This document shows positions 1,555 through 27,367 of a stretch of DNA of 27,870 nt, one piece after another. The notes beneath the pieces were generated by a model that worked only from the letters and a program-made list of their open reading frames with translations, was not told the origin of the DNA and made no database searches. The stretch's first letter is position 1. Each line of letters starts with the position of its first letter. Made by a program: the position numbers and the translations under genes. Location of the stretch: NCBI GenBank assembly GCA_041641035.1, contig JBEPZC010000001.1, positions 1 through 27,870 on the forward strand, read 5' to 3'. The stretch is from Candidatus Bipolaricaulota bacterium (GTDB taxonomy: Bacteria > Bipolaricaulota > Bipolaricaulia > RBG-16-55-9 > DRXL01).

Positions 1555-2313
1555 CTACAGCAGGTTCTCGATTGTCTCCACCGCTATGGGCGCAGCGATT
1601 TCCTCTAGCCTACCGGGGTCGAGAATTACGATCTTGCGCCGCTTCAGCGCGATCAATCCCCGCTCCTCAAATTCACCGAGGGTCCGAATGGCCGTCTCCG
1701 TGGAGATCCCAGCCATCTCTGCTAAGTCCGTGCGACTGATGGGAGCTTGAATCTCCCTGCCGTTCTCCCCCGTGCCGTACCTCTCCGCCAAAGCCAACAA
1801 CAGCCGCGCCAGACGAGCCCGACAGCTCTCGTAGGCCGTCTCGATGAGCTTCGCTTGGAAAGACTGCAACTCGCGAGCGATCTTCTCGGCTAACTGCAGG
1901 GCGACATTGGGGTAACGCTTGAGAAAATCTAAGAAATCCTCACGCTTAATAAAACGAGCCCGCGTGGGCTCGAGCGTCCTCGCTGACGCCGTGTGCGTCC
2001 CGCCCTCAAACAGATTCTCCTCGCCCAGAAGCTCTCCCGGCCCAATGATCTTCAAGATCTGGCGCTTCCCCCCTGGCCCCTGCTTGATCAGCTTCGCCTT
2101 CCCACTGCAGAGAATAAAAAACCCGAACGCCGGCGCCCCCTCATGGAAGATCGCCTCATCGGCCTCATACTCGACCGAGCGCGTCAGTCGCTGAAGCTCC
2201 TGCTGCCCTTCCCTGGTAAGCCCAGAAAAAATCCACGAACACCCTGTGCAGCCCCCGACGCCACACAGTGGAGGACTCTTCCGATGCTTGGCCCCACTCG
2301 CCACATGAGCCAT
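1555..2313 (-). CDS. Crp/Fnr family transcriptional regulator (Crp1) with Cys-rich N-terminus
   Basis: cNMP-binding beta-roll (IFHEGAPAFGFFILCSGKAKL...GPGELLGE) and C-terminal HTH (ISRTDLAEMAGISTETAIRTL). N-terminal CGVGGCTGC. Confidence 0.9.
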   Translation of the reverse strand: MAHVASGAKHRKSPPLCGVGGCTGCSWIFSGLTREGQQELQRLTRSVEYEADEAIFHEGAPAFGFFILCSGKAKLIKQGPGGKRQILKIIGPGELLGEENLFEGGTHTASARTLEPTRARFIKREDFLDFLKRYPNVALQLAEKIARELQSFQAKLIETAYESCRARLARLLLALAERYGTGENGREIQAPISRTDLAEMAGISTETAIRTLGEFEERGLIALKRRKIVILDPGRLEEIAAPIAVETIENLL

Positions 2314-2333
2314 AACACTTCTATTGTAGTCAT

Positions 2334-2369
2334 TTGTCGGCTGTCACGCAACTCTATGAGATAGATCAC
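2334..2369. promoter_or_regulatory. Tandem Crp/Fnr-like boxes upstream of crp1
   Basis: TTGTCGGCTGTCAC (2334) and ATGAGATAGATCAC (2356), 22 bp apart. Minus-strand TACAAT at 2328-2323. Confidence 0.55.
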
Positions 2370-2387
2370 AACTCGGGGGGTAAAGTC

Positions 2388-3056
2388 TTACTGAGAGCAG
2401 AGCTTCTCTTCATTGATGAGGAGAATCCTGCGGCCCTCCAGGGAGATCCAGCCCTGACGCTCAAGGTCGTGCAATACCCGACTGACGGTCTCCGGGGCCA
2501 TACCCACCAAGGCCGCCCACTCGTCCCGCGAGAGCTTCAAGTCAATCACTACACCCTGTGAAGCGCGCTTGCCAAAGCGCTCTGCCACCTCGACCAACTT
2601 GCGGGTGAGCCGCGCCGCACTCTCAACATAGACTGTCTTGACCAGCGCCGCACGCACCTCCCCCAGCTGGCGCACCAGGTCCTCCATGATCCAGAGCAAC
2701 AAACTCGGATATCGCATGAAAACCTTGTGGATCTCGGGGTGCGCAAACCACGCAAGAGAGGTCTGCCGGAGCGTCACGGCAGAGCACGTGTGCACGGCAT
2801 TGCTGAAGAGCTCGCCCATCCCAAGGATCTCGCCAGGTCCGACCAACCGGACAAACTGCACGCATCCTTCGCTCTGCCAAAACTCCTTTACGGCACCATC
2901 CAAGACGATATAGAGACCATCGACGAGATCCCCTTGGGCATATATCTGAGCGTCTGGGGGAAAGAGAAGCTCCTGGGCGCTGGCGAGCACGACCTCGCGT
3001 GCCTCAGGTTCCAGCTTGTCTAAGAGGCTCTGCAACTTGCGCGTCATACACCCCAT
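2388..3056 (-). CDS. Crp/Fnr family transcriptional regulator (Crp2); alternative start ATG 3047
   Basis: IYAQGDLVDGLYIVLDGAVKE...GPGEILG and HTH LSRDEWAALVGMAPETVSRVL. Confidence 0.9.
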   Translation of the reverse strand: MGCMTRKLQSLLDKLEPEAREVVLASAQELLFPPDAQIYAQGDLVDGLYIVLDGAVKEFWQSEGCVQFVRLVGPGEILGMGELFSNAVHTCSAVTLRQTSLAWFAHPEIHKVFMRYPSLLLWIMEDLVRQLGEVRAALVKTVYVESAARLTRKLVEVAERFGKRASQGVVIDLKLSRDEWAALVGMAPETVSRVLHDLERQGWISLEGRRILLINEEKLCSQ

Positions 3057-3138: not shown

Positions 3139-3945
3139 TCACGGGGCGCGCCGCTGGCCGCACTGCGGGCAGAATCGCTCATCGGCACGGAAACGATAGC
3201 CGCAGCGTGCGCACCATTGCGCCGGACGTTGCGGCACGGCCTCTGGAGAGACCCGTCGTCTTCGCCAAAACCATATGAAGCTGATGACGCCAAGGACTAC
3301 GACAGCAAGCCCCGCCCCAAGCGCTGCCCACAAGATCGAGATCGGTGAGTGAGGGCGCAGCGACGGCAGGGTGTCGGTCTTTCTGTAGCTGACGCGCTGC
3401 TCGATGAGAGTCCCTGGGGAAACAGCGCCGATCCTTTTACCGAAGTAGCGGAAGCCGCGGGTGTCAATCCCTTGGGGGTCGAGCGCGGGGCTTGTTTGCA
3501 ATCCTGTCGCCCGCAACGGCTGTTGCACTTCGATCTCCAAGTTTTTGATCTCGTAGCGATCCGACCGAAAGCGAAAGACGAACGACTTCTCTTCAGAAGT
3601 CCCAAGCACATCATCGTAGTACTCCAGCTGAAAGCGTCGGCTTCCAGGGGTGAAGAGCACAAGCTGCCCCGCTTCACCGGGGAGAAGCTGCCAGTCGTCG
3701 GCAAGCAGGGTTCCAGCAGGGCCAACATGAGCGACGGCGTGGATCTGCGCTGTGCTGGGAATGGTGAACGCAAGAGGACTTTGTGGGTCTTCAGCAAGCT
3801 CGCCCCGATAGATCACGAGCAGTCTGGGATCGTCGTACTCCGGCCAAAGCGAGATCTCCAAACGCTCAAGCACTATTGGGACCTGCTGGGAGAACCCCAG
3901 CGCCCCCATAATAATGAGCATGAAGACGCTCAATGCGCGACGCAT
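3139..3945 (-). CDS. Hypothetical membrane protein: signal peptide, extracytoplasmic domain, TM helix, C-terminal zinc ribbon
   Basis: Hydrophobic N-terminus (MRRALSVFMLIIMGALGFS), TM helix (ISILWAALGAGLAVVVLGVISFIWFW) followed by RRRR, and CARCG...RFCPQCG. Confidence 0.75.
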   Translation of the reverse strand: MRRALSVFMLIIMGALGFSQQVPIVLERLEISLWPEYDDPRLLVIYRGELAEDPQSPLAFTIPSTAQIHAVAHVGPAGTLLADDWQLLPGEAGQLVLFTPGSRRFQLEYYDDVLGTSEEKSFVFRFRSDRYEIKNLEIEVQQPLRATGLQTSPALDPQGIDTRGFRYFGKRIGAVSPGTLIEQRVSYRKTDTLPSLRPHSPISILWAALGAGLAVVVLGVISFIWFWRRRRVSPEAVPQRPAQWCARCGYRFRADERFCPQCGQRRAP

Positions 3946-3983: not shown

Positions 3984-5723
3984 TCAGAATCTGGTATGAC
4001 ATTGGGAGCACATGTTTGCTCTGTCAGTAAGGTGACACGTGGAGCAGAAGTCGTGTCCAGGCTTGGGCATCTCTTGATTTAAGAACTCTAAGTGCCCCAT
4101 CTGAGTGACTCCCTCATGACATGCTTCACAGCGCACCCACAGAGCGATATGGGTCTCATGAGGGAACTGGGCTGCTCTTTCAGAGCGCTTTGGGAGTGCT
4201 GCTTCGTGACACTGTAAGCAGTCCTGAGATTCTAGCTGGGCCATGCGCTCAGCAGGAGGGTGGCATTGTGTGCAGTCTCGCGCTGCAGCGAGCGTTTGGC
4301 CGTGCTCTGCGGGCTGCACAGCATGGCACGCATCGCAGTCGGCATTCTTGAGATGGACCCTATGAGACGCCGGGGCTTGCACAAACGCGAGAGCTTCCAC
4401 GCCGACATGACAACGATTGCACCCGAACGGTTCCCCAGTGTGCAACGGCTTCTCAGCCATGTACTCGCCCTGCACGTGCAGCGCTCGCACACGAGCGATG
4501 TCCTCAGCGCTGCGGCGCAGCAGGGCGCTCACATAGTGAATGTTGTGCACGCCGAAGCTGCGATCTCCTTCAATCAGCTCGATGTTCTTCTTGGCTTGTT
4601 CATATTCTGGGGTGTGGCTGAGCTGGTGTTCGAGCTGAGCGAGCTGCTGGCGCAGCTCGGCGAGCTTCTGCGAGACGAACTGTTGCCACTGGCGCATCAG
4701 ACGATCGTATCCGGGGCCATGACAGGTCACACACGCCTGAGGCTGCGCTCTCGTTGCGATCGGCGTGCGACTCTGATGACACCCTATACAGATCACGCCC
4801 GATAAGAACATGGGATCGGGCATGGGCTCCACTCCCACCCCTCCTGTGCCCATATAGATCTGCTCTTGGATGGAGTGGTGTCCCCCATGGCAGCTGGCGC
4901 AATCGGGCGAGAGCGCCTGGGCCAGCTCGAACCTGCCATGCTCTAACTGTGCGTGACAATCAGTACACTTGAGATGCTGCTCAGTGACATGGGTCCGATG
5001 GAGAAGCTCGGTCTTGCCGTACTCTTCAAAGCGCTCGACGTGACACGAGAAGCACTTCTCGCGGAGCACGTTGCCCCGGCCACGGGTGACGTGCACATGG
5101 CATGTCAAGCACTCAACACCGCTTTTCAGGTATTCTGAGTGATTGAAGACGACCCCGCGGATGAGAATCTGATCCTTCGGTGGCCCATGACAGCTATAGC
5201 AGTCCCCTACAGCTTGCCCGCGCACAACACCAGTGAAGTGACAGATCTTGCAGGCGCCCTCGTCCACAGCCAGATGGTCTCCCTGGACGAGTTGGGAGTG
5301 GCACGTCGTGCAGGTCAGCTCGATACCACGAGCAGAGACCCCATAGTGTGTGGTGTGGCTGAATGGGATCTTCTTGCGATAGAGCGTGACTCCCTCTAGA
5401 GCCTTCTCGTCGTGGCAGCTTAGACAGTTGCGGTCGCTGACGCGGGAGTGCGGCTGCATATTGTACGCGCCGACCCAGTAGCGCAGCATCTCGCCTAATA
5501 ATCTGATCTTCCCCGCGATATACCCAGAAAGACCGTGCTCATAGTGACACTCGATGCAGTTCACTCTGGCGTGGCTGGAGCTGGCCCAGTTGTCATAGAA
5601 CGGCTTCATGAAGTGACACGACGCGCAGAAATTGGGCTGATCGGTCGCGCGCGCCCCAGCCCACGCCAGCCAGATCAGTATCCCCACTGCTATGAGTGCG
5701 AGCACAAGCCACCGACGTCTCAT
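3984..5723 (-). CDS. 19-heme c-type cytochrome (paralog B) with N-terminal TM anchor and NapC/NirT/NrfH-like domain
   Basis: 19 CxxCH counted. N-terminal TM helix, then TDQPNFCASCHFMKPFYDNWASSSHARVNCIECH. Confidence 0.9.
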   Translation of the reverse strand: MRRRWLVLALIAVGILIWLAWAGARATDQPNFCASCHFMKPFYDNWASSSHARVNCIECHYEHGLSGYIAGKIRLLGEMLRYWVGAYNMQPHSRVSDRNCLSCHDEKALEGVTLYRKKIPFSHTTHYGVSARGIELTCTTCHSQLVQGDHLAVDEGACKICHFTGVVRGQAVGDCYSCHGPPKDQILIRGVVFNHSEYLKSGVECLTCHVHVTRGRGNVLREKCFSCHVERFEEYGKTELLHRTHVTEQHLKCTDCHAQLEHGRFELAQALSPDCASCHGGHHSIQEQIYMGTGGVGVEPMPDPMFLSGVICIGCHQSRTPIATRAQPQACVTCHGPGYDRLMRQWQQFVSQKLAELRQQLAQLEHQLSHTPEYEQAKKNIELIEGDRSFGVHNIHYVSALLRRSAEDIARVRALHVQGEYMAEKPLHTGEPFGCNRCHVGVEALAFVQAPASHRVHLKNADCDACHAVQPAEHGQTLAAARDCTQCHPPAERMAQLESQDCLQCHEAALPKRSERAAQFPHETHIALWVRCEACHEGVTQMGHLEFLNQEMPKPGHDFCSTCHLTDRANMCSQCHTRF

Positions 5724-6580
5724 ACGCGTTCAGCCTTCGCGCGCTCTTGCATGATCTGTTCGTACTCCAGAGGATGCTCCTCCATCATGCGCTTCTTCGA
5801 GATCTTCCCCGTGAAGATCGTCATATTGATGGGGAAGACCTCAGGGTTGAGATGGGCGTGATACATGTGCCAGGTGATGAGCGCGAGGATTGCCAGCAAC
5901 GCCTCGCCCGAATGAGCCTGCAGAGCGACGTCAAAGATATACTTGGGGAAATACGCTAATGCTATTCTATGAAACCAGAGCATCAGCCCGGAGAGCACCA
6001 TGACCGCTGTGCCCCACACTAGCGCCCAATACTCGAATTTCTCGCTGTAGCTGTAGCGCCCGAACTTGGGACGCTCTGACGACAGCCCGAGCATAAACTT
6101 CACATTGGCGATAAAGTCCCACAGATCTTTCACTCTGGGGAGCAGCTCGCGCAGTTCGCGACGGCCCTCGCGCGTCAGCAGCCATCCGATATGCCACACA
6201 GTGACGAGCATCAACAGCGACGCTCCCACCCGATGGATGATACGATTGACCTCCAAGCTCCAGATCGTGCGGAAGAGGAACTCCGCCCAGGCCGAATCGT
6301 GAAACTTGATGGGCAGCCCCGTGATCGTCAGCAGGATCACTCCAATAGCCAGCACCAGATGCTGCAGACAGACGTTCAGACTGAACCGCACGAAGTACTC
6401 TTCTTCTTCTTTCTCTTGTGCGACGCGACGTTGCTTTGCCTGCAGTTCTGCTTTCAGCTGCGCCCGAACCAACTCCTTGATGCGTTGCAGCTCAGCGTCA
6501 TCGAGCGGGCGAGCTAGCTCATGTTCGAGCTCGCGTTGTAACTCTCGTACGAGTCGCTCTTCGTTTGCAAAGTCAGCCAT
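5720..6580 (-). CDS. Diheme cytochrome b, FdnI/HydC type (CbcL membrane-domain-like), with N-terminal coiled coil
   Basis: RFSLNVCLQHLVL, IIHRVGA, RYSYSEKFEYWALVWGTAVMVLSG, LQAHSGEA and ITWHMYHAH motifs. AGGAG RBS upstream. Confidence 0.85.
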   Translation of the reverse strand: MADFANEERLVRELQRELEHELARPLDDAELQRIKELVRAQLKAELQAKQRRVAQEKEEEEYFVRFSLNVCLQHLVLAIGVILLTITGLPIKFHDSAWAEFLFRTIWSLEVNRIIHRVGASLLMLVTVWHIGWLLTREGRRELRELLPRVKDLWDFIANVKFMLGLSSERPKFGRYSYSEKFEYWALVWGTAVMVLSGLMLWFHRIALAYFPKYIFDVALQAHSGEALLAILALITWHMYHAHLNPEVFPINMTIFTGKISKKRMMEEHPLEYEQIMQERAKAERV

Positions 6581-7637
6581 GAGAACTCCTCCGGGCGTGG
6601 CGCCATCGTCCGTAGAGGTCCAATACGATATAGAAGATAAAGCCTGCTGTCATTACGATCGTCAGCCAACGGTAGAACTCATAGACCCAGAAGACGATCC
6701 CTGCATCAGGGTCACTGGGGATGATGTGAAATCTCCCGCGGGCGACGTTATGCGAAGCATTGGGGTGGCATTGCCCACAGGTTTGTGCGAGGTTGAGCGG
6801 GTGGATCGGGGAGCGCGGATCTCGACTCGACAGAATCTTATGATACTCATGACAGCTCACACAGTTGGCGCTCCTGAGAATCCCGAACTCGACAGCAATA
6901 CCGTGAAAGCTCTTCTTGAACGCCTCGACCTGTTTGACGGGGACGCCGCGACGCTCCATGATCTTGACGTCGGTATGGCAGCGTGCGCAGGTGTTCGCGA
7001 CATTTTGCGGGTGGAGCGACGAGCGTGGATCATCGGGCGGGAAGAGATCGTGCTCACGATGGCAATCTGAGCAGACAGCAGACTCTACGACACCCTGGCG
7101 CAGGGCCTGCCCGTGCACGCTCTCTAAGTATTCTGTATAGATCTCGATGTGGCAGCTCCCGCAGGTCTTGGGGATATTCGTGCGATAGACAGGGGAGAGC
7201 GGATCGGTGTGAGCGCGGACGGAGTGCACGGTGTGGCAGCTCTTGCAGTCGGGGGCGTTAGGGTCGCCGCGCTCGAAGGCCCGGCCGTGCACGCTCTCTT
7301 TGTATTTCTCTGGACGCTCACTCACCGGCGCCCCCACGACGTTCCCCTGATAGTGACAGTTCAGACAGTGAATCTGTTGGGGTCTTCTCTGATGGGGGAT
7401 GACCGTCACGTCGGTGTGACAGTCTATACAGAGTTTCTCTGTGTGCACCGACGCTTTGAGCTGCTCGTAGTCGACGAAGAGAGATTTAAACTGTCTGGGG
7501 GTGACTTCGACCTTGAAGGTGGGATTGCCGTGACATTCTAATAGGCACCGAGCGTTGGGGTCGCGCTGGCCGTAGCCGGGCCAGCCGGCTACGAGCAGAC
7601 TCCAACTAATGACAAAGAGCACGATGAATCTCTTCAT
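6573..7637 (-). CDS. Nonaheme c-type cytochrome with signal peptide and C-terminal TM anchor (CbcL periplasmic-domain-like)
   Basis: 8 CxxCH plus an N-terminal CLLECH (CX3CH), with repeated SxHG...CxxCH...N..TCxxCH modules. Start moved from 7775 to ATG 7637 (MKRFIVLFV), giving an ATGA overlap with the upstream stop. Confidence 0.88.
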   Translation of the reverse strand: MKRFIVLFVISWSLLVAGWPGYGQRDPNARCLLECHGNPTFKVEVTPRQFKSLFVDYEQLKASVHTEKLCIDCHTDVTVIPHQRRPQQIHCLNCHYQGNVVGAPVSERPEKYKESVHGRAFERGDPNAPDCKSCHTVHSVRAHTDPLSPVYRTNIPKTCGSCHIEIYTEYLESVHGQALRQGVVESAVCSDCHREHDLFPPDDPRSSLHPQNVANTCARCHTDVKIMERRGVPVKQVEAFKKSFHGIAVEFGILRSANCVSCHEYHKILSSRDPRSPIHPLNLAQTCGQCHPNASHNVARGRFHIIPSDPDAGIVFWVYEFYRWLTIVMTAGFIFYIVLDLYGRWRHARRSSHG

Positions 7638-8341
7638 AGCAAGCCCTTCTCTTTGAGACGCTGGTACTCCAGCGGGTGCTCTTCTTGCAGGTGCTTCGCT
7701 GAGATCTTGCCATCCCAGAAGCTCCAATCTATAGGGAACCGCCCTGGACTCAAATGCACTAAATACAGATGCCACAGCGTCAGCACGATGAGAATAAGCG
7801 TCCCTGTGCCACTGTGGACAGCGAGAGCCACGTCAAAGGCCCACTTGGGCAATACCACAAAGAACCAATCGTGACACCAGAGAACGAACCCGCTGGCGAT
7901 CATAATCACGACGAAGAGCGCAAAGGCCCAATACTGAAATTTCTCACGGTAGCTGTAGCGATCCAGCTGAGGTTTTTCAGGGCGCAATCCCAGATCATAG
8001 AGCAACGCGGCACCGTAATCTTTGAAGTCTTGGGTTTTGAAGAGCATCTGCATGAATTCTTCGTGGCCGGTGCGCGAGAACAGAATGTACAGAATGTGAT
8101 AGAGCACCGTAGCTATGAGCACTCCCGCAGCGATGCGATGGAGCGTGCCGCGGGCCTCAAAGCCTCCTGTGAGCGCTATAAGCAAGCGCCCAAAGGTGCT
8201 GTCCCGATAGAGCAGTGCCAAGCCCGTCAAAATCAAGAGCGTGACGCTCACCATAAGCGCAAAGTGCTGCACTCGCACCTGAATATTGATTCTCTCGATG
8301 GTGCGCTCTTCACTGAGTCCTCTGATGTGTTCACTGGGCAT
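7634..8341 (-). CDS. Diheme cytochrome b, FdnI/HydC type (second copy)
   Basis: RVQHFAL, TLHRIAA, RYSYREKFQYWA, LAVHSGTG and TLWHLYLVH; paralog of 5720..6580. Confidence 0.85.
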   Translation of the reverse strand: MPSEHIRGLSEERTIERINIQVRVQHFALMVSVTLLILTGLALLYRDSTFGRLLIALTGGFEARGTLHRIAAGVLIATVLYHILYILFSRTGHEEFMQMLFKTQDFKDYGAALLYDLGLRPEKPQLDRYSYREKFQYWAFALFVVIMIASGFVLWCHDWFFVVLPKWAFDVALAVHSGTGTLILIVLTLWHLYLVHLSPGRFPIDWSFWDGKISAKHLQEEHPLEYQRLKEKGLL

Positions 8342-9128
8342 GACGCCTCCTTAACCATCGAATGATGTCGAGACTGACATGGAGCACGAACAGAGCGGTA
8401 AACACTCCCAGAAAAGCGATATAAAAAATCCGCACAATGTATACCCCAGGTGAGACGCTCAACTTGGCTTCGACGTGGACCTTGCCCTTGAGCAGATTCG
8501 CGCTCACGTGGGGATGGCATTGCCCGCACGTCTGCACGAGATTGTTGGGATGGATCGACGAATGGGGATCGGATGCGGCTAAGATCAGATGGCTCCCGTG
8601 GCAACTGGAGCAATTGGCTGCAATGAGATTGCCGTATTTGACGGAGAGACCATGATAGCTCCCCCAGTACGTTGAATAGCGACGGGTAGCAATGCCGAAA
8701 CGCTCGGAGAGCCCGGAGTTCTCATGGCAGCGTCCGCAGGTCTGCGGGAGATTGCGCACGAAGACCTGGGAGCGTGGGTCGGCTTTCGAGAAGATCGCGT
8801 GAGCCGAATGGCAATCGGTGCAGCGGGCGGCCTCTCCGATCCCTTGAGCGCGGGCTTGACCGTGCACGCTCCTTTGATATTGCTGAACTTGGTCAAGATG
8901 ACAGCCCGCGCACGCCTGAGCCGTCAGCCGGCTGGGCCGCTGCTCATGAGGGATGCCCTGGACGTCGCTATGACAGACGGTGCACGCGAGATCTCGGTGC
9001 ACAGAGCCTTCGAACGCTGCGCGATCGAAAGTCTCGGTGTGACAATCCCAACACTCTGTGGGCTGTCGCGCGACAGCTGGTGCAGAAGCCAGCACGAGCA
9101 GTATCCCAACGAACGTGATCGAGCGCAT
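8331..9128 (-). CDS. Heptaheme c-type cytochrome with signal peptide and C-terminal TM anchor
   Basis: 7 CxxCH; shorter paralog of 6573..7637. Confidence 0.88.
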   Translation of the reverse strand: MRSITFVGILLVLASAPAVARQPTECWDCHTETFDRAAFEGSVHRDLACTVCHSDVQGIPHEQRPSRLTAQACAGCHLDQVQQYQRSVHGQARAQGIGEAARCTDCHSAHAIFSKADPRSQVFVRNLPQTCGRCHENSGLSERFGIATRRYSTYWGSYHGLSVKYGNLIAANCSSCHGSHLILAASDPHSSIHPNNLVQTCGQCHPHVSANLLKGKVHVEAKLSVSPGVYIVRIFYIAFLGVFTALFVLHVSLDIIRWLRRRHAQ

Positions 9129-13151: not shown

Positions 13152-13606
13152 CCCTCCCCCGGGCCGATAAAGATTTCGCCTTGCACAGTGGAGACGCGCA
13201 GGCGTTTCAACGGACGACGCGGCGGGCCAGCTAAGACGTTCCCGTTGGCGTCAAACAGCCCTGCATGACAGGGGCAGCTCAGCGTCAGGCGCTTCTCGTC
13301 CCACTGGACAATGCAACCCTGATGAGTGCAGATCGCTGAGAGGGCCATCCAGCCCCCCTTCAGATGCAAGACCCAGACGGGCTCCCCGTCGAAGAGCACT
13401 TGCTTCCCTTTACCGATGGGGATTTCATCGAGGCGAGCGACACGCATCCGCCGCCGCGCAGGATTAAAAACCCTCCTCTCCGCGGGGAAGAGATACGCTA
13501 GGATAGCCCCTATTACACCGACAACGCCCACAGTGAGCGCACCTCCAAGGAGGTTGCTCAAGAAAGTCCTGCGCTCGTAGCCGCCTTGAGCTTCCTTTTC
13601 GTTCAT
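13148..13606 (-). CDS. qcrA: Rieske [2Fe-2S] protein
   Basis: Tat-like ERRTFL plus hydrophobic helix; SAICTHQGC and CPCHAGLFD boxes. Confidence 0.93.
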   Translation of the reverse strand: MNEKEAQGGYERRTFLSNLLGGALTVGVVGVIGAILAYLFPAERRVFNPARRRMRVARLDEIPIGKGKQVLFDGEPVWVLHLKGGWMALSAICTHQGCIVQWDEKRLTLSCPCHAGLFDANGNVLAGPPRRPLKRLRVSTVQGEIFIGPGEG

Positions 13607-16013: not shown

Positions 16014-16376
16014 ATGGAAGATGAACTTACAGTGCTGCAGGCCCACATGTGCAAGGTGCTTGCGCACCCCAAGCGCCTGCGGATTATCTATGCCCTGCGC
16101 ACGGGCGAACGCAGCGTCGGGGAGCTTGTTCAAGAACTCAAGCTTCCGTATGCCAATCTCTCCCAGCACTTGCGCGTATTGCTGGAGGCCAGACTGGTCG
16201 AGGTACGCCATCATGGACGATATAAATATTATTATCTCTCGATCCCGCAGATCGCTGAAGCGTGCGATCTCGTGCGCCGAGTGTTGCGGGAGCGTCTGAC
16301 ACAACTTGGAAAGTTGGCACAAGCCAACAATAAAAGAGAAAAAGAGAAAGAAAAGAAAGGAGGTGAATCTCGATGA
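16014..16376 (+). CDS. ArsR/SmtB family transcriptional regulator
   Basis: CKVLAHPKRLRIIYAL...SVGELV...ANLSQHLRVLLEARLV winged HTH; Cys13 and Cys84. Confidence 0.92.
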   Translation: MEDELTVLQAHMCKVLAHPKRLRIIYALRTGERSVGELVQELKLPYANLSQHLRVLLEARLVEVRHHGRYKYYYLSIPQIAEACDLVRRVLRERLTQLGKLAQANNKREKEKEKKGGESR

Positions 16377-17682: not shown

Positions 17683-18282
17683 ATGGTGGCACGGCTGGTC
17701 GTCGCGGTCTTGATCGCAGCGGGGGCCATTGTGCTGGGGGTTATTAGCTATGCGTTCTTCACCGGCCGCAGCGATCTGAGCAAACTCACGCTCACTGAGG
17801 GTCGAGGGCTCTTCGTGGACGACCCCAAGGCCCTCATCGCAGAGACCGCCGCGAGCTTAGGGCATCTCGCCCCGGATTTCTCGTTGGAAGACCTCACCGG
17901 CCGGAGGGTGAGCCTGAGCGACCTGCGGGGCAAACCCGTCTTACTCAATCTCTGGGCGACGTGGTGCCCCCCCTGCCGCCAAGAGATCCCCGAACTCCAA
18001 GAATTCCATGAACGCTACGGGGAGAAGATCGCGCTCGTGGGCGTCAATTGGGGCGAAGACGCGAACACTGTGAGAGGTTTTTTGGCTCAGTTTGGCGTCA
18101 GCTATCTCAACTTACTTGACCCTCGCGGCACAACGTTTGTTCTCTATGGGCTGACGGGCATCCCCGAGAGCTTCTTCATCGACCCTGAGGGCTACATTCG
18201 TGGGGCGTGGATTGGGCCGATCACAGCAGAAAGTATCTCCAAGGGCTTTGCGCGGTTGGGGCTTCTCAAAGAAAGTGAGTGA
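17683..18282 (+). CDS. resA: ResA/TlpA thiol-disulfide oxidoreductase (cytochrome c maturation)
   Basis: N-terminal TM; APDFSL...GKPVLLNLWATWCPPCRQE...GIPESFFIDPEG. Confidence 0.9.
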   Translation: MVARLVVAVLIAAGAIVLGVISYAFFTGRSDLSKLTLTEGRGLFVDDPKALIAETAASLGHLAPDFSLEDLTGRRVSLSDLRGKPVLLNLWATWCPPCRQEIPELQEFHERYGEKIALVGVNWGEDANTVRGFLAQFGVSYLNLLDPRGTTFVLYGLTGIPESFFIDPEGYIRGAWIGPITAESISKGFARLGLLKESE

Positions 18283-20061: not shown

Positions 20062-20935
20062 CGCGTTCTTCTTCTATCTGAGTGCCGTGGGGTACTTTCT
20101 GAGCTTTGTCTTCTATCTGCTGCATCTTATCGGGAGCCCTACAGATCAGAAATCTGGGCTGGGCATCGTGGCAGCGCCCCAGCCGTGGGTGCTCAAGCAG
20201 ACGACCTGGGGCAAAGTCGCCACAGGGACAACTCTTGTCACCGTGCTCATCAGCACGGTCGGGATGGTGCTGCGCGTTCTCGAGATGCATCGGGTGTCGG
20301 ACTTCTGGATGCTGCCGGTGACCAATACGTATGAGACGCTAGCGTTCTTCTCCTGGGCGATCCCCCTGGTCTATCTGCTCTTTGAGTGGCGCTACAAAAT
20401 CAGAGTGGTCGGGGCTTTTGCGACAGGGTTGGCGTTTCTGTTCATCGCGTTAGCGTCATCGCCGCTTTTGTCGAGCGAGGTCCGTCCGCTGGTGCCGGCG
20501 CTGCAGAGCTATTGGCTCGTCTTGCACGTCTTCTTTACGCTGGGCGGCGAGGCGTTCTTCGCTGTGGCGTTTGGCGCAGGTGCGCTCTTCTTATGGCTAC
20601 AGAAGCGTGGGGGGAATCTCCAGACGCTCAAGATGCTCGATAACCTGGGCTACAAAGCGATTGCCTTAGGGTTTCCGCTCTTCACGCTAGGCGGGCTGGT
20701 CTTTGGGGCGATCTGGGCACAGCATGCGTGGGGACGCTACTGGGGCTGGGACCCCAAAGAGACGTGGATGCTCATTACTTGGTTCTTCTATGCGCTCTAC
20801 TTGCACGTGCGGGTGAGGTGGGGCTGGCGCGACGCGAAAACGGCTTGGCTGGCGGTCGGCGGCTTCGCCGTCGCTATGTTTACGTGGTGGGGTGTGAATT
20901 ATCTGTTAGCGGGCTTGCATAGTTACGCAGGCTAA
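20054..20935 (+). CDS. ccsA: ResC/CcsA cytochrome c synthase (System II)
   Basis: WWD domain GAIWAQHAWGRYWGWDPKETW and LQSYWLVLHV. Start moved from 19940 to ATG 20054 (MDSAFFF). Confidence 0.95.
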   Translation: MDSAFFFYLSAVGYFLSFVFYLLHLIGSPTDQKSGLGIVAAPQPWVLKQTTWGKVATGTTLVTVLISTVGMVLRVLEMHRVSDFWMLPVTNTYETLAFFSWAIPLVYLLFEWRYKIRVVGAFATGLAFLFIALASSPLLSSEVRPLVPALQSYWLVLHVFFTLGGEAFFAVAFGAGALFLWLQKRGGNLQTLKMLDNLGYKAIALGFPLFTLGGLVFGAIWAQHAWGRYWGWDPKETWMLITWFFYALYLHVRVRWGWRDAKTAWLAVGGFAVAMFTWWGVNYLLAGLHSYAG

Positions 20936-20953
20936 CACAAGAAGGAGGTGATC

Positions 20954-21517
20954 ATGATGCTCAAGCGTATGATAGCCATTGCGCTCTTTGTGGCAGTCCC
21001 CTTAGGGGTGACTGTGATAGTGATGGCGTTGGCCCAGCAGCCTCCGGCTATTCCCAAGGGGCACGTCTCGATCAAGACGGGAGCCCCCGTCGAACTCTGC
21101 TTCCGGTGCCATAAGGCTCCACCGCCCTTGCCCACAGAGAAGACGTCGTTCTGCGCGACGTGTCATATCAACATTCACATAGAAGAGACGGAATTTGTCG
21201 ACGTGACGCGGGTGGGGAATCGCTCCAAGCACCCTGTAGAGTTCAACTGGGCAGCAGCGGATTGCTCATCGTGCCACACCAAGCCGCATAAGACGAAACC
21301 CGCGCCGCACCCGGTTACGGCGCAGCAGCCGTTGAGCGCCTTCTGTCAGCCGTGTCACTTGAACCCTGCAGACCCAGAGAAAGCCGTAGGCGGACAGGAG
21401 AAAGCTGGAGAGTTCTGCGCCGGGTGTCACCATATCGGGCTCAATCCGAAGCACGTGAAGGCCCCCGCTGGGGTCAAAGTTAACTTCTGCTTCGGTTGTC
21501 ATAAGACGACGCCGTGA
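20954..21517 (+). CDS. Small hexaheme c-type cytochrome (paralog 1)
   Basis: Signal peptide, 6 CxxCH; AGGAGG RBS favours ATG 20954 or 20957. Confidence 0.88.
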   Translation: MMLKRMIAIALFVAVPLGVTVIVMALAQQPPAIPKGHVSIKTGAPVELCFRCHKAPPPLPTEKTSFCATCHINIHIEETEFVDVTRVGNRSKHPVEFNWAAADCSSCHTKPHKTKPAPHPVTAQQPLSAFCQPCHLNPADPEKAVGGQEKAGEFCAGCHHIGLNPKHVKAPAGVKVNFCFGCHKTTP

Positions 21518-21656: not shown

Positions 21657-22781
21657 ATGAGAGCTCGGATTTTCTCTGTCAGCGTACTGGTACTCAGCGT
21701 CGTAGCTGTGGGGCTTGTGGCATCTTCGCTAGGTCCTGCTGAAGAATGGCTCAAGAGCAAACACGCCAACCGCGAGACGGCTCTTGCTGAAGCGACGGTT
21801 GAGTCCAGGGGGCCATTGGCCGGACATTGTGGGCGTTGTCATAGCGAGCAGGGTTTTTTGGCGTGGTTGCCTCAGCTGATAGCAGGCAACCCTGGCTTGA
21901 TTATTGACCCCAGCACCGGCAAGCCCGCCGAAGTCCCCTATCTGGCCCAGCTTGGTTTGACCCAAGAGAAAGTCCAGCCCATCACCTGTACGGTCTGCCA
22001 TGGGGAAAGATTCGCCCTGCGCATTGAGAACAGCACGCCCCTGTTGCCATCGGGCTTTGCAGCCGTGGGCGTGGGCAAGGGTGCGCTATGCATGACCTGC
22101 CACAACACGCGCAACGGTCGCATCCAGTGGGATTCCTCTGATCCCAAACGCTACACCGGCCCGCACGAAGCCGCCCAAGCCGACGTCATCATGGGGAAGA
22201 ACGTCTACTTCTTCAATGACACAGCGGAGCTGGTCTCTCCCCATGCCGCGTTCACGGGCGATTCGTGTGTGACCTGCCATAAGACCTTGGGCAAGGAAGG
22301 GCATACGTTCGAGCCATCAGAGACGTCATGCGCCAGCTGCCACGGCGCAGCACTGAAGATCGAGTTTGTCACCGAGCCAACGAAGCACCTGCTGGGGCAG
22401 TTGAGGGTCGCTATCGAGAAGAAGGTGCTTGCTGCGCGCGACAGGATCAAGGTCGTGGCCGCATGGGATCCCAAGACGGGCAAGATCACACCTGACACGC
22501 CCATCGACGCCACTCAGATCAAAAATGTTGACTTCCTGACCATTTATGGCCAGCTGGCGTTCCAGTTCACTATGGCTGACGGCAGCGAGGTCTACAGCCA
22601 GATGGGAGGCGTCAAAGACGCCCCAGGCGATCAAGGCAAGCCTGTTTTCGCAACTGCAGACCCGGTCGTGCGAGCAGCTCATAACTATATGCTCGTTAAG
22701 TACGACGGGAGCAACGGCGTGCACAACCCCAAGTTCGTCCGCGATGTGCTGATCACAACGATTCGAGCGATGTCTCAATAG
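21657..22781 (+). CDS. Pentaheme c-type cytochrome (five CxxCH, no CxxCK), helical C-terminus ending DGSNGVHN
   Basis: Signal/TM; CGRCH, CTVCH, CMTCH, CVTCH, CASCH; AAGGAGG RBS. Confidence 0.85.
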   Translation: MRARIFSVSVLVLSVVAVGLVASSLGPAEEWLKSKHANRETALAEATVESRGPLAGHCGRCHSEQGFLAWLPQLIAGNPGLIIDPSTGKPAEVPYLAQLGLTQEKVQPITCTVCHGERFALRIENSTPLLPSGFAAVGVGKGALCMTCHNTRNGRIQWDSSDPKRYTGPHEAAQADVIMGKNVYFFNDTAELVSPHAAFTGDSCVTCHKTLGKEGHTFEPSETSCASCHGAALKIEFVTEPTKHLLGQLRVAIEKKVLAARDRIKVVAAWDPKTGKITPDTPIDATQIKNVDFLTIYGQLAFQFTMADGSEVYSQMGGVKDAPGDQGKPVFATADPVVRAAHNYMLVKYDGSNGVHNPKFVRDVLITTIRAMSQ

Positions 22782-22801: not shown

Positions 22802-23344
22802 ATGCTCAAGCGATGGAGTCTTCTCGCGGCGCTCATTGTAGTCATGGGAGCTGTGGGTGCGATGGTCTTCGCTGTGGCCCAACAGCCGCCACCGCTGCCC
22901 CAGGGGCATATCTCCGTGCCTCCAGGCACCTCGGCAGCCACGTGCTTTGAGTGTCACCAGAGCCCGCCCCCGCTCAAGACCGAGCAAGTCGGCTTCTGTA
23001 AGACCTGTCACATCACGACGCATATCGTCACCAAGCCTGGCTTCACCGTCGAGCGGCCGGGGCCGCGGCCTAAGCACGTCATCGCCTTCGAGTGGACTGC
23101 GGCTGAATGCAACAGCTGCCACACGCCGCACAAGACGAAGGTCGCTAAACACCCCGTAGGGGAGAAGCAGTCCAACAGCAGCTTCTGTCTCCCCTGCCAC
23201 GAGACGCCCCAAGTTAAGGGCATCACCGGTCAAGAGAACGCCGGCGAGTTCTGTGCTGGGTGTCACAACCTTGGTTTGTCTCCAACTCACGTGCAGACTC
23301 CACCTGATGCGAAAGCGGTCTTCTGTTTCGGCTGCCATAAGTAA
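22802..23344 (+). CDS. Small hexaheme c-type cytochrome (paralog 2)
   Basis: Signal peptide, 6 CxxCH, colinear with 20954..21517 (shared AGEFCAGCH and FCFGCHK). Confidence 0.88.
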   Translation: MLKRWSLLAALIVVMGAVGAMVFAVAQQPPPLPQGHISVPPGTSAATCFECHQSPPPLKTEQVGFCKTCHITTHIVTKPGFTVERPGPRPKHVIAFEWTAAECNSCHTPHKTKVAKHPVGEKQSNSSFCLPCHETPQVKGITGQENAGEFCAGCHNLGLSPTHVQTPPDAKAVFCFGCHK

Positions 23345-23425: not shown

Positions 23426-24202
23426 ATGACAGCGACTGTCGAGACAGAGAATGTCCTCGTGCGCATGCACCAAGACCTGCAGCGCGCTCTGCAGAAGCCC
23501 GTCACTCGTCGCAGCTGGGCTATGGCGGTAGACACCCGCAAGTGCATCGCGTGCTATGGATGCGTCATAGCCTGTATCGCTGAGAACGTGCTGCCGCCAG
23601 GAGTGACATATCGCACCGTGCTCGACATCGAGCTGGGCAAATACCCAAACGTCGAGCGCATTCTCAAGCCCATGAACTGTCAGCAGTGCGACAATGCCCC
23701 CTGCGTCCAAGCCGCCAATAACGTGGCTCCAGGGAGCATGGAGAAGCGCCCCGATGGGGTCGTCGCCGTAGATTACGAACGCGCCACCAAAGAAGCGTTT
23801 GAAGCAGCACAACGAGCGTGCCCCTACAAGCGCGCTGTCTATTTCGATGACGGACGCTTCTACACTGACGGCACACCTGCTCGCCAAGCCTACGAGATCC
23901 GGCCAAGCTTCGAGTATGGCAAGGCCTGGAGGCGCACAGCCGGAAGCCCTCCAGTCAACACGCTGCGCAAGTGCCACTTCTGCTTGCACAGGATAGAGAA
24001 CGGCGAATTACCGGCGTGTGTGACGACCTGCATCGGCGAAGCCATGTATTTTGGCGATCTCAGCGACCCCACTAGTCTCATTGCCCAGCTTCTTAAAGAG
24101 AATCGCGATAAAGTGATGCGGGTCCACGAGAGCAAGGGCACCCAGCCAAGGGTCTATTATCTGACGGACACGCCCGTGCTGTGCAAGGCCCAGCATCCAT
24201 AG
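23426..24202 (+). CDS. TtrB/NrfC/PsrB-family Fe-S subunit with only three predicted [4Fe-4S] clusters
   Basis: CIACYGCVIAC, CQQCDNAPC, ACPY and CHFC...PACVTTC (12 Cys in the motifs). Start moved to ATG 23426 after AAGGAGG. Confidence 0.9.
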   Translation: MTATVETENVLVRMHQDLQRALQKPVTRRSWAMAVDTRKCIACYGCVIACIAENVLPPGVTYRTVLDIELGKYPNVERILKPMNCQQCDNAPCVQAANNVAPGSMEKRPDGVVAVDYERATKEAFEAAQRACPYKRAVYFDDGRFYTDGTPARQAYEIRPSFEYGKAWRRTAGSPPVNTLRKCHFCLHRIENGELPACVTTCIGEAMYFGDLSDPTSLIAQLLKENRDKVMRVHESKGTQPRVYYLTDTPVLCKAQHP

Positions 24203-24214
24203 GAGGTGGAGCCT

Positions 24215-27200
24215 ATGAGCAAGACTCAGATCACACGACGCAGGTTCTTGAAGACGACGGCGTTGCTGGGCGGGACGGCGTTCTTTGTCACTCGCTTTGG
24301 TTGGCCTATCGAGCTGTTTGGACAGTCGGCGCAATATGATCTATCTAAGCCCGAGAATATTCTCTACACGGTCTGTCAGCAGTGCAACACTCAATGTGGG
24401 CTGAAAGTCAAGCTCTATGACGGCTTGGCAGCAAAGCTTGAGGGCAACCCCTATAGCCCATGGAACCTCCAGCCCAGTGTGCCGTATAAGACATCGCCCA
24501 AGGAAGTGGCCAAGCTCGATGGGCGGCTCTGCCCCAAGGGCCAAGCCGGCATTCAAACTGTTTATGACCCCTATAGGATCGTGAAGGTGCTCAAGCGCGC
24601 AGGCAAGCGCGGCGAGAACAAATGGGTAGCAATCCCCTTCGATCAAGCTATCAGCGAGATCGTCAACGGTGGGGATCTCTTTGGCGAAGGGCCCGTCCCC
24701 GGCTTGAAAGAGATCTGGGCGCTGCGTGACCCCAAGATCGCCAAAGCCATGGCCGACGACGTCAAGGCGATCTGGGCTAAGAAGACCACCGACGAGAAAC
24801 GCTCTGCAGTAGCAGCGTTCAAAGAGAAGTACGCGAGCTATCTGGACACGCTGATCGACCCCGATCACCCCGATCTTGGGCCCAAGAACAATCAGCTTGC
24901 GTTCTTGTGGGGGCGGCTCAAGGGCGGACGCGCTGAGCTCATTAAGCGTTTCACGGTCGAGAGCTTTGGTTCGGTCAACGCGCATGGGCACACGACCGTC
25001 TGTCAGGGCTCGCTCTACTTCGCCAGCAAAGCCATGAGCGAGCAGTATATCGGGGGCAAATGGACGGGTGGCAAGAAGTTCTATTGGCAAGCTGATCAGA
25101 ATAATTCTGAATTTATTATCTTCGTTGGGGCATCACCCTTTGAGGGCAACTATGGTCCAACGAATCGCGCGCCGGGGCTGACGCGCGGGCTGGTGTCGGG
25201 ACGATTGAAGTTCGCCGTCGTTGACCCGCGCTTCAGCAAGACGGCCTCGAAAGCGTGGAAATGGCTGCCTATCAAGCCCGGCACCGAGGCGGCTTTGGCG
25301 TTAGCGATGATCCGCTGGATCATCGAGAACAAACGCTATGACGCGCGCTACTTGAGCAACGCCAACAAAGCGGCAGCGACAGCCGACAAAGAGCCGACCT
25401 GGACGAATGCCTGCTGGCTGGTCACGATCAAAGATGGCCGACCCACGACGTTCCTGCGAGCAAAAGAGATCGGCTTGACCGACGAGGACCGCTTCGTCGT
25501 GCTCAAGGACGGTAAACCCATCGCGTTCGACCCCTACGACACGGCTACCCCTGTCGAGGGCGACCTGCTCGTCGACACCGAGCTGGGAGGGATCAAGGTC
25601 AAAAGCGGGCTGCAGGTCCTATGGGAGTCGGCATCTTCCAAGACGCTCGAAGAGTGGAGCGCTATCTGCGACATCCCCGTCCGGGATATCATCGAGCTGG
25701 CCAAAGAATTTACGAGCCACGGTAAGAAAGCCGCTGTAGATATCCATCGCGGCGTATCGCAGCATACCAACGGCTTCTATAATGTCTTCGCGTGGTTCGC
25801 TCTCAACCTGCTCATCGGCAACAACGACTGGAAAGGCGGGATGATCCAAGCTGCGACATTCGATCACACCGGTGGGAAGGAGGGCCAGCCATTTAACCTC
25901 GCCAAGCTCAACCCCGGAAAGACCACAGCGTTTGGGGTGAGCATCATTCGCCATGAGACCAAGTACGAAGAGACGACGCTCTTCGATGGGAAATACCCAG
26001 CCAAGCGCCCGTGGTATCCGCTCTCCAGCGATATCTATCAAGAGCAGATCCCGTCCATGGGCGACGCCTATCCCTATCCCGTCAAAGCCCTGTTCATCTA
26101 CATGGGCTCGCCGGTCTATGCCTTGCCCGCCGGACATACGAATATCGAGATCCTCGCCGACCCCAAGAAGATCCCGCTCATCGTTGCCTGCGACATCACT
26201 ATCGGCGAGACGTCCATGTACGCCGACTATATCTTCCCTGATCTGTCGTATCTGGAGCGATGGGAGTTTGCGGGGTCGCATCCCAGCATCGCGCAGAAAG
26301 TCCAGCCGATCCGCCAGCCGGTCATCGCGCCCTTGACCGAAACTGTCAAAGTCTTTGGGCAAGAGATGCCGCTCTCCCTGGAGGCGATGCTCTTAGGGAT
26401 TGCCGAGAAGCTGGGGCTGCCGGGCTTCGGCAAGGACGGCTTCGGCGAAGGCCAAGACTTCACTCATCCCGACCAACTCTATCTGCGCATGGTGGCCAAC
26501 GTCGCCGCCGGAGATAAACCGGGCAACGAAGTCCCCGATGCTGATGATGCTGAAGTCGAGCTGTTTGTCAAAGCCCGACGACACCTGCCCAAGACGGTCT
26601 TCGATCCGGAGCGCTGGCAACAGATCGTCGGCGAGAAGTGGTGGCGCAAGGTCGTCTACGTTCTCAACAGAGGCGGACGCTTCGACGACTTCGAGCGTGG
26701 CTACGACGGCGACTACGCGCGCAATAAGTACGGCACGCTCATCAATCTCTACCAAGAGAAGACAGCGCTCATAAAGAACAGTATGACGGGCAAGCCCTTG
26801 GCAGGCTACCCAGTCTATCTGCCGATAGCCGACTCGGTAGGCCGACCGCTCGAGGACGAAAAGCAAGGCTTCGATCTCCATCTCATCACCCACAGGGAGA
26901 TCGTCCAGACGAAGTCCCGAACGGTTGGGAACTATTGGCTGCTCGCGGTCATGCCGGAGAACTCTATCTTGGTGAACTCCCGTGATGCCCAGCGCCTCCA
27001 GCTTCAGGACGGTGATCTAGTGAAGATCACCTCGGCGAGCAACCCCGAGGGCGTCTGGGATTTGCGCAACGGTGTCAAAGTTCCCATGATCGGCCGAGTG
27101 AAGGTCACGGAGACGATCCGCCCAGGAGTGATCAGCTTCGCCCTGGGGTATGGCCATTGGGCCTACGGTGCCACCGACGTCGTCATTGACGGGGAGGTGA

Positions 27201-27367
27201 TCACCGGCGACGAGCGTCGGCGTGCGACGGGCTTAGGCGGTGTCGCCGGCGTCCATGCGAACGCTGCCATGCGCGTCGACCCCTACCTCAAGAACACGTG
27301 CTTAGTCGACGTCTACGGCGGTAGTGCGGTCTTCTATGACACGAAAGTCAAATTGATCAAGGTGTAA
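24215..27367 (+). CDS. ttrA: Mo/W-bisPGD oxidoreductase catalytic subunit, tetrathionate reductase TtrA family
   Basis: Tat signal TRRRFLK; FS0 motif CQQCNTQC...CPKG; TtrA-type [17 protein letters not shown] and [10 protein letters not shown] segments; GHTTVCQG (likely Mo-ligating Cys). Start ATG 24215 after AGGAGG. The substrate is not established. Confidence 0.8.

Follow-up and report, generated by a model that had tools for sequence, protein, structure and literature searches.

We analyzed a window of 27,870 nucleotides, which spans the full length of C1, the longest contig in a metagenome-assembled genome (MAG) of Candidatus Bipolaricaulota (G000; 1.28 Mb, 244 contigs). The window carries an island of ten multiheme cytochrome genes together with genes for membrane-bound quinone-side modules, heme maturation proteins and candidate terminal enzymes, which we describe as a branched multiheme respiratory system. 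In the explanation that we favor, and hold with moderate confidence as a whole, several modules would oxidize quinol in parallel and pass the electrons to periplasmic heme carriers, which would in turn supply terminal enzymes encoded in optional cassettes. As part of this explanation, the host genus would consist of diderm, facultatively aerobic, hot-spring Bipolaricaulota, with the island serving as their Crp/Fnr-controlled anaerobic respiratory system. The general design of parallel quinol:cytochrome c oxidases is already known. Judged by sequence, the most useful new element would be a cytochrome-fed family of TtrAB-type molybdoenzymes whose Fe-S subunit lacks the cluster FS4, together with the cassette behavior of the genes.

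The ten heme-containing open reading frames (ORFs) hold 94 CxxCH motifs, one CX3CH and one CX4CH, giving 96 heme c sites distributed along the window as 19, 8+1, 7, 18+1, 9, 8, 8, 6, 5 and 6. An earlier note on this DNA had counted ten multiheme genes with 19+9+7+19+9+8+8+6+5+6 = 96 sites, and our motif scan agrees exactly. A six-frame scan of the window found only 2 more CxxCH outside the ten reading frames. The CX4CH of the 19-heme cytochrome 19hA falls in a column where, among 80 family members, 36 have CxxCH and 32 have CX4CH; the CX3CH of the 9-heme cytochrome 9h_b is kept in its orthologs and is CxxCH in a Hydrothermus ortholog. Judging by these alignments, both variant motifs are real heme sites. 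The tenth multiheme gene, for the hexaheme protein 6h_b (22802..23344, plus strand), lies beneath a 404-residue ORF on the opposite strand (22775-23989, minus strand). We considered that ORF as a gene and rejected it as a spurious high-GC artefact, as it has no family match and overlaps both 6h_b and TtrB; it could mislead gene callers. C-terminal transmembrane (TM) helices, as in cytochrome c1, are found in 9h_a, 7h and 9h_b, and N-terminal ones in 19hA and 19hB. The remaining cytochromes have N-terminal signal or anchor segments in a TM scan.

The earlier note had placed the quinone-side modules on the minus arm and the catalytic candidates (HAO-like and TtrA-like) on the plus arm, which is the layout that we found. 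It had also listed a Rieske/cytochrome b complex, two FdnI-type b cytochromes, two NrfH-like heads, a System II maturase, three Crp/Fnr regulators and one ArsR, and Pfam and NCBIfam agree with every item. The minus arm, all on the minus strand, begins with a Rieske [2Fe-2S] subunit (13148..13606; PF00355, E 3e-13) that has a TAT-type RRTFL signal, an N-terminal TM helix and the Rieske boxes (CTH...CPCH). The next gene encodes a cytochrome b with 7 TM helices (12177..13151; PF00033, E 7e-49), in which a b6-like N-terminal part is fused to a subunit-IV-like part. Its scores for b6 (185 bits) and for Geobacter ExtP (184 bits) are nearly the same, both below cut-off, and the ligands His80, His94, His180 and His195 are all present with b6-type spacing. 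The third gene encodes the 9-heme cytochrome c 9h_a (11017..12174; 9 CxxCH), anchored by a C-terminal TM helix (residues 391-409). It always follows cytochrome b in a conserved four-gene unit and probably replaces c1 or f in the Rieske/b complex. With the boxes, the four His and an anchored 9-heme c-type subunit in the place of c1/f, the complex has the hallmarks of the bc1/b6f type.

The fourth gene of the unit encodes the 19-heme cytochrome 19hA (9209..11020; 18 CxxCH and 1 CX4CH), which has an N-terminal TM helix, an NrfH-type head and a 15-heme extension. The head covers positions 15-136 of the 138 positions in the NrfH profile TIGR03153 (E 6e-16), with 58.7 bits against a cut-off of 134, and is fused to the 15 further hemes. 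Its first heme motif, CxxCHIM (CGTCHIM), aligns to the CTSCHIM of the Met-ligated heme 1 in D. vulgaris NrfH (2J7A_C, E 8e-9). The AlphaFold model of 19hA is of moderate quality (pLDDT 69) and has three long helices past the head, at about residues 346-431. Its weak fold matches are to NrfH, OcwA, NrfA and octaheme nitrite reductases, and going by the model the protein may contain a catalytic-type module beyond its role as a wire. Two split CbcL-like modules follow. In the first, the 7-heme cytochrome 7h (8331..9128; 7 CxxCH, C-terminal TM; 42% identical to 9h_b) is paired with b561_1, an FdnI/HydC-type diheme cytochrome b (7634..8341; PF01292, E 3e-14; TIGR01583, E 1.5e-11, below cut-off). 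In the second, 9h_b (6573..7637; 8 CxxCH and the CX3CH, C-terminal TM), whose start is likely Met47 of the long ORF, is paired with b561_2 (5720..6580; PF01292, E 2e-12; TIGR01583, E 1.7e-11), an FdnI/HydC-type cytochrome b with a charged N-terminal extension of ~60 residues and 37-38% identity to b561_1. The 19-heme cytochrome 19hB (3984..5723; 19 CxxCH; TIGR03153, E 3e-15), a paralog of 19hA with 36-38% identity, again carries an NrfH-type head, whose first motif is likewise CxxCHIM.

The plus arm, all on the plus strand, encodes a putative molybdoenzyme near its end. The TtrA-like Mo-bisPGD catalytic subunit (24206..27367) has an RRRFL TAT signal, a C-x2-C-x3-C...C motif that aligns to FS0 of PsrA, and an HTTVC segment with the Mo-ligand Cys that aligns to HSSVC of ArrA; these features place it in the Psr/Ttr/Arr group. 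Its 517.6 bits against NF011567 fall short of the TtrA equivalog cut-off of 1750 bits, and the next families are PhsA (211 bits) and ArrA (126 bits). When the TtrB-like Fe-S subunit (23426..24202; NF011569, E 6e-37, below cut-off) is aligned to a canonical paralog and to PsrB/ArrB, four ligands are missing from it: the fourth Cys in group II and all but the last Cys in group III. Groups I and IV are complete, so that three clusters are left in place of the four of TtrB, PsrB and DmsB-type subunits. We take the four missing positions to be the ligands of FS4, the anchor-proximal cluster, following the established work on DmsB and NarH. No member of the NrfD/TtrC family was found in the window, in G000, in G083 (91% complete and of the same architecture) or in three further relatives (G084, G089 and G091). 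The earlier claim that the TtrA-like enzyme lacks a TtrC partner therefore holds for G000 and G083, with the addition that the ligands facing such an anchor are lost. In G088, on a 67-kb contig, unrelated housekeeping genes begin directly past the gene for a beta-helix protein that closes the plus arm.

Loss of the FS4 ligands correlates with the absence of NrfD. It was seen in 5/5 hexaheme-linked TtrB, including one of a sister genus, and in 0/3 NrfD-linked TtrB within the order; G086, G088 and G109 each have, besides, a second TtrA paralog that stands in the canonical arrangement TtrB-NrfD-TtrA. All of the best 120 homologs, which share 52-83% identity and come from Armatimonadota, Rokubacteria, Tectomicrobia, Deltaproteobacteria and others, show the same loss. 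Among eight contexts in genomes of other phyla, none has NrfD as a neighbor, and in 7/8 TtrB is directly followed by a TtrA of 1055-1089 residues. One unrelated lineage (L120) places its FS4-less TtrBA between a 7h-like/b561 pair and a Rieske/cytochrome b/9h-like unit, so that the enzyme is found beside these types of module a second time, independently. In phylogenetic trees of TtrA, anchored and anchor-less enzymes are not resolved into separate deep branches, suggesting that the catalytic subunit, and with it probably the chemistry, is shared and the electron entry alone differs. A 10-taxon tree had suggested that the anchor-less TtrA arose by duplication within the order; once 7 TtrA from other phyla were added, its deep nodes collapsed and the two types were mixed, which leaves such a duplication as one possible origin. 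In 3/8 of these FS4-less TtrBA pairs of other phyla (L112, L114 and L121), genes of the arsenic-resistance type are found at a distance of up to about 5 kb: an ArsA ATPase; ArsR and ArsP; and a low-molecular-weight phosphatase/ArsC-type gene with ArsR and an SBF/Acr3-type gene.

TtrBA and the HAO-like gene each behave as an optional cassette that is cleanly present or absent at a fixed position, and the heme framework stays. We surveyed 13 other genomes of the genus and 184 genomes of the phylum. The 19-heme protein is found in 21/184, all but one within the window's order; in the genus it occurs in 11/13 genomes, 8h in 9/13, TtrA in 6/13, 5h in 5/13 and the HAO ortholog in 4/13. G083 repeats the window architecture with both HAO and TtrBA, and contig C8 of G088 has the same gene order from TtrA through 19hB without the HAO gene. 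G084 reads ResA-ResB-CcsA-6h_a-5h-6h_b-beta-helix with no TtrBA. G080 reads 6h_a-6h_b-beta-helix, without 5h and TtrBA, and a 24%-identical HAO-like gene fills its HAO slot. Across the genus, where the HAO ortholog is lacking, this slot between Crp3 and ArsR is empty or, in two genomes, holds an HAO-like gene of 24-31% identity. The minimal locus, in G089, retains an HAO-like gene, Crp, 8h and Crp3 on one arm and Rieske, cytochrome b, 9h, 19hA, a 268-residue protein gene, Crp2 and Crp1 on the other. The 'interchangeable' terminal reactions of the earlier note thus stand at the level of the pangenome, as TtrBA and HAO cassettes and as different HAO-like genes in the same slot. All core-bearing genomes of the genus have TtrA and/or an HAO-like gene, bar one that is 72% complete, a co-occurrence that is descriptive rather than statistical because the genomes are close kin.

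The hexa-penta-hexaheme trio stands upstream of TtrBA. The hexaheme 6h_a (20948..21517; 6 CxxCH; 51% identical to 6h_b) is, from its sequence, probably soluble and periplasmic once the signal is cleaved. It is followed by the pentaheme 5h (21657..22781; 5 CxxCH) and by 6h_b (6 CxxCH), which immediately precedes TtrB here and in G082, G083, G086, G088 and G094. Since 6h_a, 6h_b and the beta-helix gene persist without TtrBA, the trio is not simply a substitute for TtrC. We also considered 5h as a dedicated partner of TtrBA and discarded it: G084 has 5h without TtrBA, 5h adjoins the Rieske unit in genomes of the f5 group, and the cytochrome adjoining TtrB in Armatimonadota is only marginally similar. 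The plus arm further encodes the 8-heme cytochrome 8h (16373..17521; 8 CxxCH), a core member with local likeness to Geobacter ExtM (NF040943, E 1e-12, far below cut-off). Searches of PDB sequences with 5h and 8h gave marginal matches only.

The HAO-family octaheme protein (14541..15821; 8 CxxCH; PF13447, 99 bits against 21.9) has an N-terminal TM or signal segment. Its best solved relative is 6H5L, the Kuenenia HAO-like protein Kustc0458 (E 1e-29, full-length alignment). Between this gene and the trio lies a System II heme maturation set, recognized by its ResB domain and by a CcsA with the heme-handling domain: a ResA/CcsX-type membrane thioredoxin (17683..18282; PF00578/PF08534), ResB/CcsB (18289..20061; PF05140, E 3e-79; PF12773; PF04060) and the heme lyase subunit CcsA (20054..20935; PF01578; TIGR03144, 224.6 bits against a cut-off of 187.6). 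At the ResB N-terminus (18289-18680), a double zinc ribbon is joined by an Fe-S domain of the RnfB type (RnfB models, residues 73-129); both are predicted to be cytoplasmic. A second, plain ResABC is encoded on contig C92 of G000, and the maturation system of the island therefore looks dedicated, perhaps redox-gated.

Four regulators belong to the island. Crp1 (1555..2313, minus strand), which has an N-terminal C-x4-C-x2-C, and Crp2 (2388..3056, minus strand) lie near one end, and Crp3 (13779..14510, plus strand) is divergent from the Rieske operon; all three match PF00027 and PF13545. An ArsR/SmtB regulator (16014..16376, plus strand; PF01022, E 2e-15) shows no obvious As-binding Cys pair. 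TGA-N6-TCA boxes are enriched 18-fold in intergenic DNA, with 10 in 1,048 bp against 14 in 26.8 kb of coding sequence. They stand upstream of units on both arms, some of them paired 22 bp apart. This distribution fits control by the Crp/Fnr proteins that the island is predicted to encode.

From the observed gene content, its conservation, the cassettes, the FS4 correlation and the operator boxes, we infer a direction of electron flow, candidate substrates and the docking of cytochromes on enzymes as follows. Five inner-membrane modules would draw electrons from the quinol pool: the Rieske/cytochrome b complex with its anchored 9-heme subunit, the two NrfH-headed 19-heme cytochromes, and the two split CbcL-like pairs of an FdnI-type cytochrome b and an anchored 7- or 9-heme cytochrome. 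By analogy with Geobacter, each of the parallel modules is probably suited to its own range of redox potential. The 8-heme protein, the two hexahemes and the pentaheme would receive the electrons as periplasmic carriers, in a single shared network that all five modules would feed, and would hand them to plug-in terminal enzymes from the optional cassettes. The soluble TtrAB-type molybdoenzyme would most likely reduce tetrathionate or a related S/Se/As oxyanion, and the HAO-family octaheme most likely a nitrogen oxide. As TtrB keeps FS1-FS3 and has lost FS4, which docks on NrfD/TtrC, a heme protein would donate to FS3. More tentatively, and with some doubt on our side, FS4-less TtrB with TtrA would be a large class of soluble Mo enzymes wired through FS3 to multiheme cytochromes, with no NrfD. 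Here they would be hot-swappable cassettes on a 'heme bus' fed by five potential-tuned quinol oxidases; the substrate may not be tetrathionate, arsenic or other metalloids being possible.

Several observations weigh against this explanation. By the earlier note, its reading would fail if the two arms were neither co-inherited nor co-expressed. Co-inheritance is not strict (TtrA 6/13, HAO ortholog 4/13, 19-heme protein 11/13); G088:C8 and G083 share the gene order. The same class of TGA-N6-TCA box stands on both arms. RNA libraries contained contigs of relatives, 80-90% identical to the window, for which assembler depths were available and DNA carry-over is possible; an 8.7-kb contig from one such library is colinear from ResB through TtrA. 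In one sample the depth of the plus arm is about 200 and that of the minus arm about 5, so that this ~40-fold gap speaks against tight co-expression of the arms, and in a second sample both arms are represented. The absence of NrfD from G000 itself is not proven because the MAG is 86.6% complete. The TtrA score is far below cut-off, which leaves tetrathionate as no more than a candidate substrate, and the arsenic-resistance genes adjoining 3/8 of the FS4-less TtrBA pairs hint that it may be a metalloid species rather than tetrathionate. In the HAO-like protein the position of the cross-link Tyr aligns to Phe, with a Tyr two residues to either side, and the placement is ambiguous in the alignment. 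Co-occurrence of 5h and TtrBA is not strict (G084, G080). Finally, the framework and the beta-helix gene persist without an enzyme in the TtrBA slot, and the core may therefore have another acceptor.

This last point leads to the main rival, that the core of the island serves extracellular electron transfer, with the membrane-anchored 19-heme proteins as wires across the periplasm to minerals, humics, electrodes or partner cells and TtrAB and HAO as side branches. The Rieske-cytb-9h-19h unit is kept across Binatia, Acidobacteriota, Eisenbacteria, Gemmatimonadota and Hydrothermae, in some cases with the 7h-b-9h-b-19h unit as well. The model of 19hA bears a weak likeness to OcwA, which in Thermincola is the terminal reductase at the cell surface, the cytochrome framework persists in genomes without TtrBA, and a secreted beta-helix protein is its constant neighbor. 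However, nearly all island cytochromes carry inner-membrane anchors or plain signal peptides, and no beta-barrel gene lies within the island. BamA/Omp85 was found in G000 and four relatives, so an outer membrane and hence a periplasm exist, yet no match to the MtrB/PioB-type porin (PF11854) was obtained in the same five genomes, a weak negative in that the control set held no true positive. Cytochromes with at least three hemes outside the island are limited to NrfHA and one tetraheme protein. NrfH and NrfA are encoded at G000:C47:5568-7352, where NrfA, with 4 CxxCH and 1 CxxCK, is cut by the contig end. Taken together, these data make a route to the cell exterior unlikely, though it deserves attention. 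They also qualify the earlier description of the island as self-contained: 94/106 CxxCH of the genome's ORFs with at least three hemes are on this contig, but NrfHA, a second ResABC (C92), a second Rieske/cytochrome b (C89) and heme-copper oxidases are encoded elsewhere, the respiratory genes among them on C47, C91 and C89. Each of four genus genomes examined has two heme-copper oxidase genes, and in four genus genomes the 49-kDa subunit of Complex I was not found. The two oxidases and the second bc complex imply that the island is an additional respiratory branch, not the sole one.

A second rival holds that the island is a set of independent respiratory operons, clustered by shared regulation or a shared need for maturation, with no common heme network. 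At least eight transcription units have boxes of their own, the gain or loss of one unit does not depend on that of another, and the depth difference between the arms in the RNA libraries of relatives is strong. Against this, the genes keep a fixed order throughout the genus, neither TtrAB nor the HAO-like enzyme has a quinol-linked partner dedicated to it, and the anchor-facing cluster is lost from TtrB, so some cytochrome must feed it. L120, moreover, independently sets the same module types around an FS4-less TtrBA. We consider this rival decidedly improbable. Least probable of all is a reversed direction, in which the TtrA-like enzyme would oxidize thiosulfate or arsenite and the HAO-like enzyme hydroxylamine, with electrons going through the cytochromes to heme-copper oxidases or flowing in reverse into the quinone pool. 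In its favor, the genomes do have two such oxidases, the reactions of Ttr and HAO can in principle run either way, genes related to arsenic lie near several FS4-less TtrBA pairs, and Tyr residues are within two positions of the HAO cross-link site. Against it, modules of the NrfH, CbcL and ImcH types have a known role in oxidizing quinol; the Fnr-type boxes speak for anaerobic induction, as do the three Crp/Fnr regulators, one of which bears an FNR-like Cys cluster at its N-terminus; and the nearest solved HAO relative is the reductive-type Kuenenia protein, with Phe aligned at the cross-link position.

The earlier statement that this combination is not recognized from any described locus was too strong, as the design principle of parallel quinol oxidases is known from Geobacter and Methanoperedens (PMC7327174). 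In Geobacter, ImcH, CbcL and CbcBA are parallel quinol oxidases that are each needed in a different potential window (10.1101/2021.04.15.440034). As in G. sulfurreducens, several menaquinol:cytochrome c oxidoreductases would feed periplasmic multiheme carriers in parallel, and the building blocks are alike: a NapC/NirT-type head as in ImcH, and an FdnI-type b with a 9-heme c as in CbcL. CbcL, compared by architecture, is a single b plus 9-heme c polypeptide, whereas the island has both domain types twice, as adjacent separate genes. The proteins with NrfH-type heads have 19 hemes in the island, against 7 in Geobacter; our searches found no outer-membrane conduit for it, and the end points appear to be soluble enzymes. 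There is also a likeness to the Geobacter Cbc6/Ext cluster (ExtM-S), in that the window cytochrome b scores like ExtP and 8h and 7h have local matches to ExtM and ExtN, but all NCBIfam Ext scores are below cut-off; a literature search on ExtMNOPQS found no match. Methanoperedenaceae have multiple menaquinone:cytochrome c oxidoreductase clusters, proposed to serve acceptors of different potential, and one NrfD clade was linked to a Bipolaricaulota MAG (Leu et al. 2020, PMC7327174). In both systems several bc-type or b-type cytochrome modules stand beside multiheme cytochromes in one genome. The Methanoperedenaceae clusters are, however, archaeal, dispersed and partly NrfD-based, and in the main text of that paper (PMC7327174) they include no NrfH-type heads, dedicated System II genes, TtrAB or HAO cassette.

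For the terminal enzymes, Salmonella-type TtrBCA is the closest match by family, TtrA and TtrB being the best-scoring families for the two subunits. The window differs from it in the absence of TtrC, the FS4-less TtrB, scores far below cut-off and the hexa- and pentaheme genes upstream, and thus does not have the three-subunit TtrBCA/PsrABC-type arrangement with an anchor encoded beside A and B. ArrAB of Shewanella sp. ANA-3 (structure 6CZ7) is a soluble periplasmic Mo-bisPGD/Fe-S heterodimer that has no membrane subunit and is reduced by CymA of the NapC/NirT family. Unlike the window TtrB, ArrB keeps all four cluster motifs in our alignment, and ArrA is distant (126 bits). Anammox bacteria have Rieske/cytochrome b complexes with multiheme and HAO-like subunits. 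The window shares with them a Rieske/cytochrome b complex with multiheme c subunits and an HAO-family octaheme encoded nearby, but its HAO-like gene is separate, optional and divergently transcribed, and the protein is shorter (426 residues) with an N-terminal hydrophobic segment of its own. The four-gene Rieske-cytb-9heme-18/19heme units of Eisenbacteria, Gemmatimonadota and others have a 19-heme protein that is 37-55% identical. In contrast to them, the window unit is one part of a larger island, which also has maturation genes and cassettes for terminal enzymes, and no outer-membrane conduit adjoins it.

The remaining genes and the origin of the contig complete the picture. A conserved 268-residue protein (3139..3945, minus strand; weak zinc-ribbon Pfam matches) has a signal peptide, one TM helix and a C-terminal zinc ribbon predicted to be cytoplasmic. 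It ends the minus arm in all relatives, G086, G082 and the minimal G089 locus among them, and in the Atlas it falls in unnamed hypothetical zinc-ribbon families that are commonest in Chloroflexota. At the other end, the contig cuts a gene for a NosD-like right-handed beta-helix protein (27446..27870, plus strand, start only; 591-628 residues in relatives). The ortholog at L093:2804-4579 matches PF13229 (E 3e-41) and PF05048 (E 5e-20), and another relative is at L117:7132-9015. This gene is always last on the plus arm, after TtrA or, where TtrBA is missing, straight after 6h_b, and is therefore part of the cytochrome framework and not of the Mo enzyme unit. Between TtrA and this gene, at 27368-27412, lies a G+C-rich inverted repeat (CTCTCCCGTC ... 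GACGGGAGAG), which may be a terminator or attenuator that sets the two apart. The MAG is 86.6% complete with 0.38% contamination, and the GC content of the window (57.8%) is close to the bin mean (57.4%). The contig is no binning artefact, because its gene order and housekeeping neighbors recur on long contigs of sister genomes, where Usp flanks the island on one side and isochorismatase/NAPRTase follow the beta-helix gene on the other. Positions 1-127 are identical to a contig end, G000:C163:2668-2794, an assembler k-mer overlap from which it follows that the SRAP gene at the left edge of the window continues on C163. The nearest public loci, with 80-88% protein identity, are in MAGs labelled Candidatus Bipolaricaulota, Acetothermia or Fraserbacteria. 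A hot-spring metagenome is the best holder of the window DNA, and parts are also present in aquifer samples.

The usual description of Bipolaricaulota is of acetogens and fermenters with small genomes, and in the literature that we searched no multiheme respiratory system was described for Bipolaricaulota, Acetothermia, Fraserbacteria or RBG-16-55-9. In a genus with genomes of 1.2-2.3 Mb, one such system takes up about 26 kb. TtrAB without TtrC has been noted in genome papers that left its function uncertain (PMC6896113; 10.1101/2020.10.01.322446), and the FS4-less TtrB family offers an explanation for these loci. The FS4 ligands could serve as a simple sequence marker to predict if an enzyme of the Ttr type is anchored in the membrane or fed by cytochromes. 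The genus itself provides natural knock-in and knock-out variants, with or without TtrBA, HAO, 5h or the second quinol unit, and the locus, being compact, would suit tests of the way in which parallel quinol oxidases are matched to acceptors.

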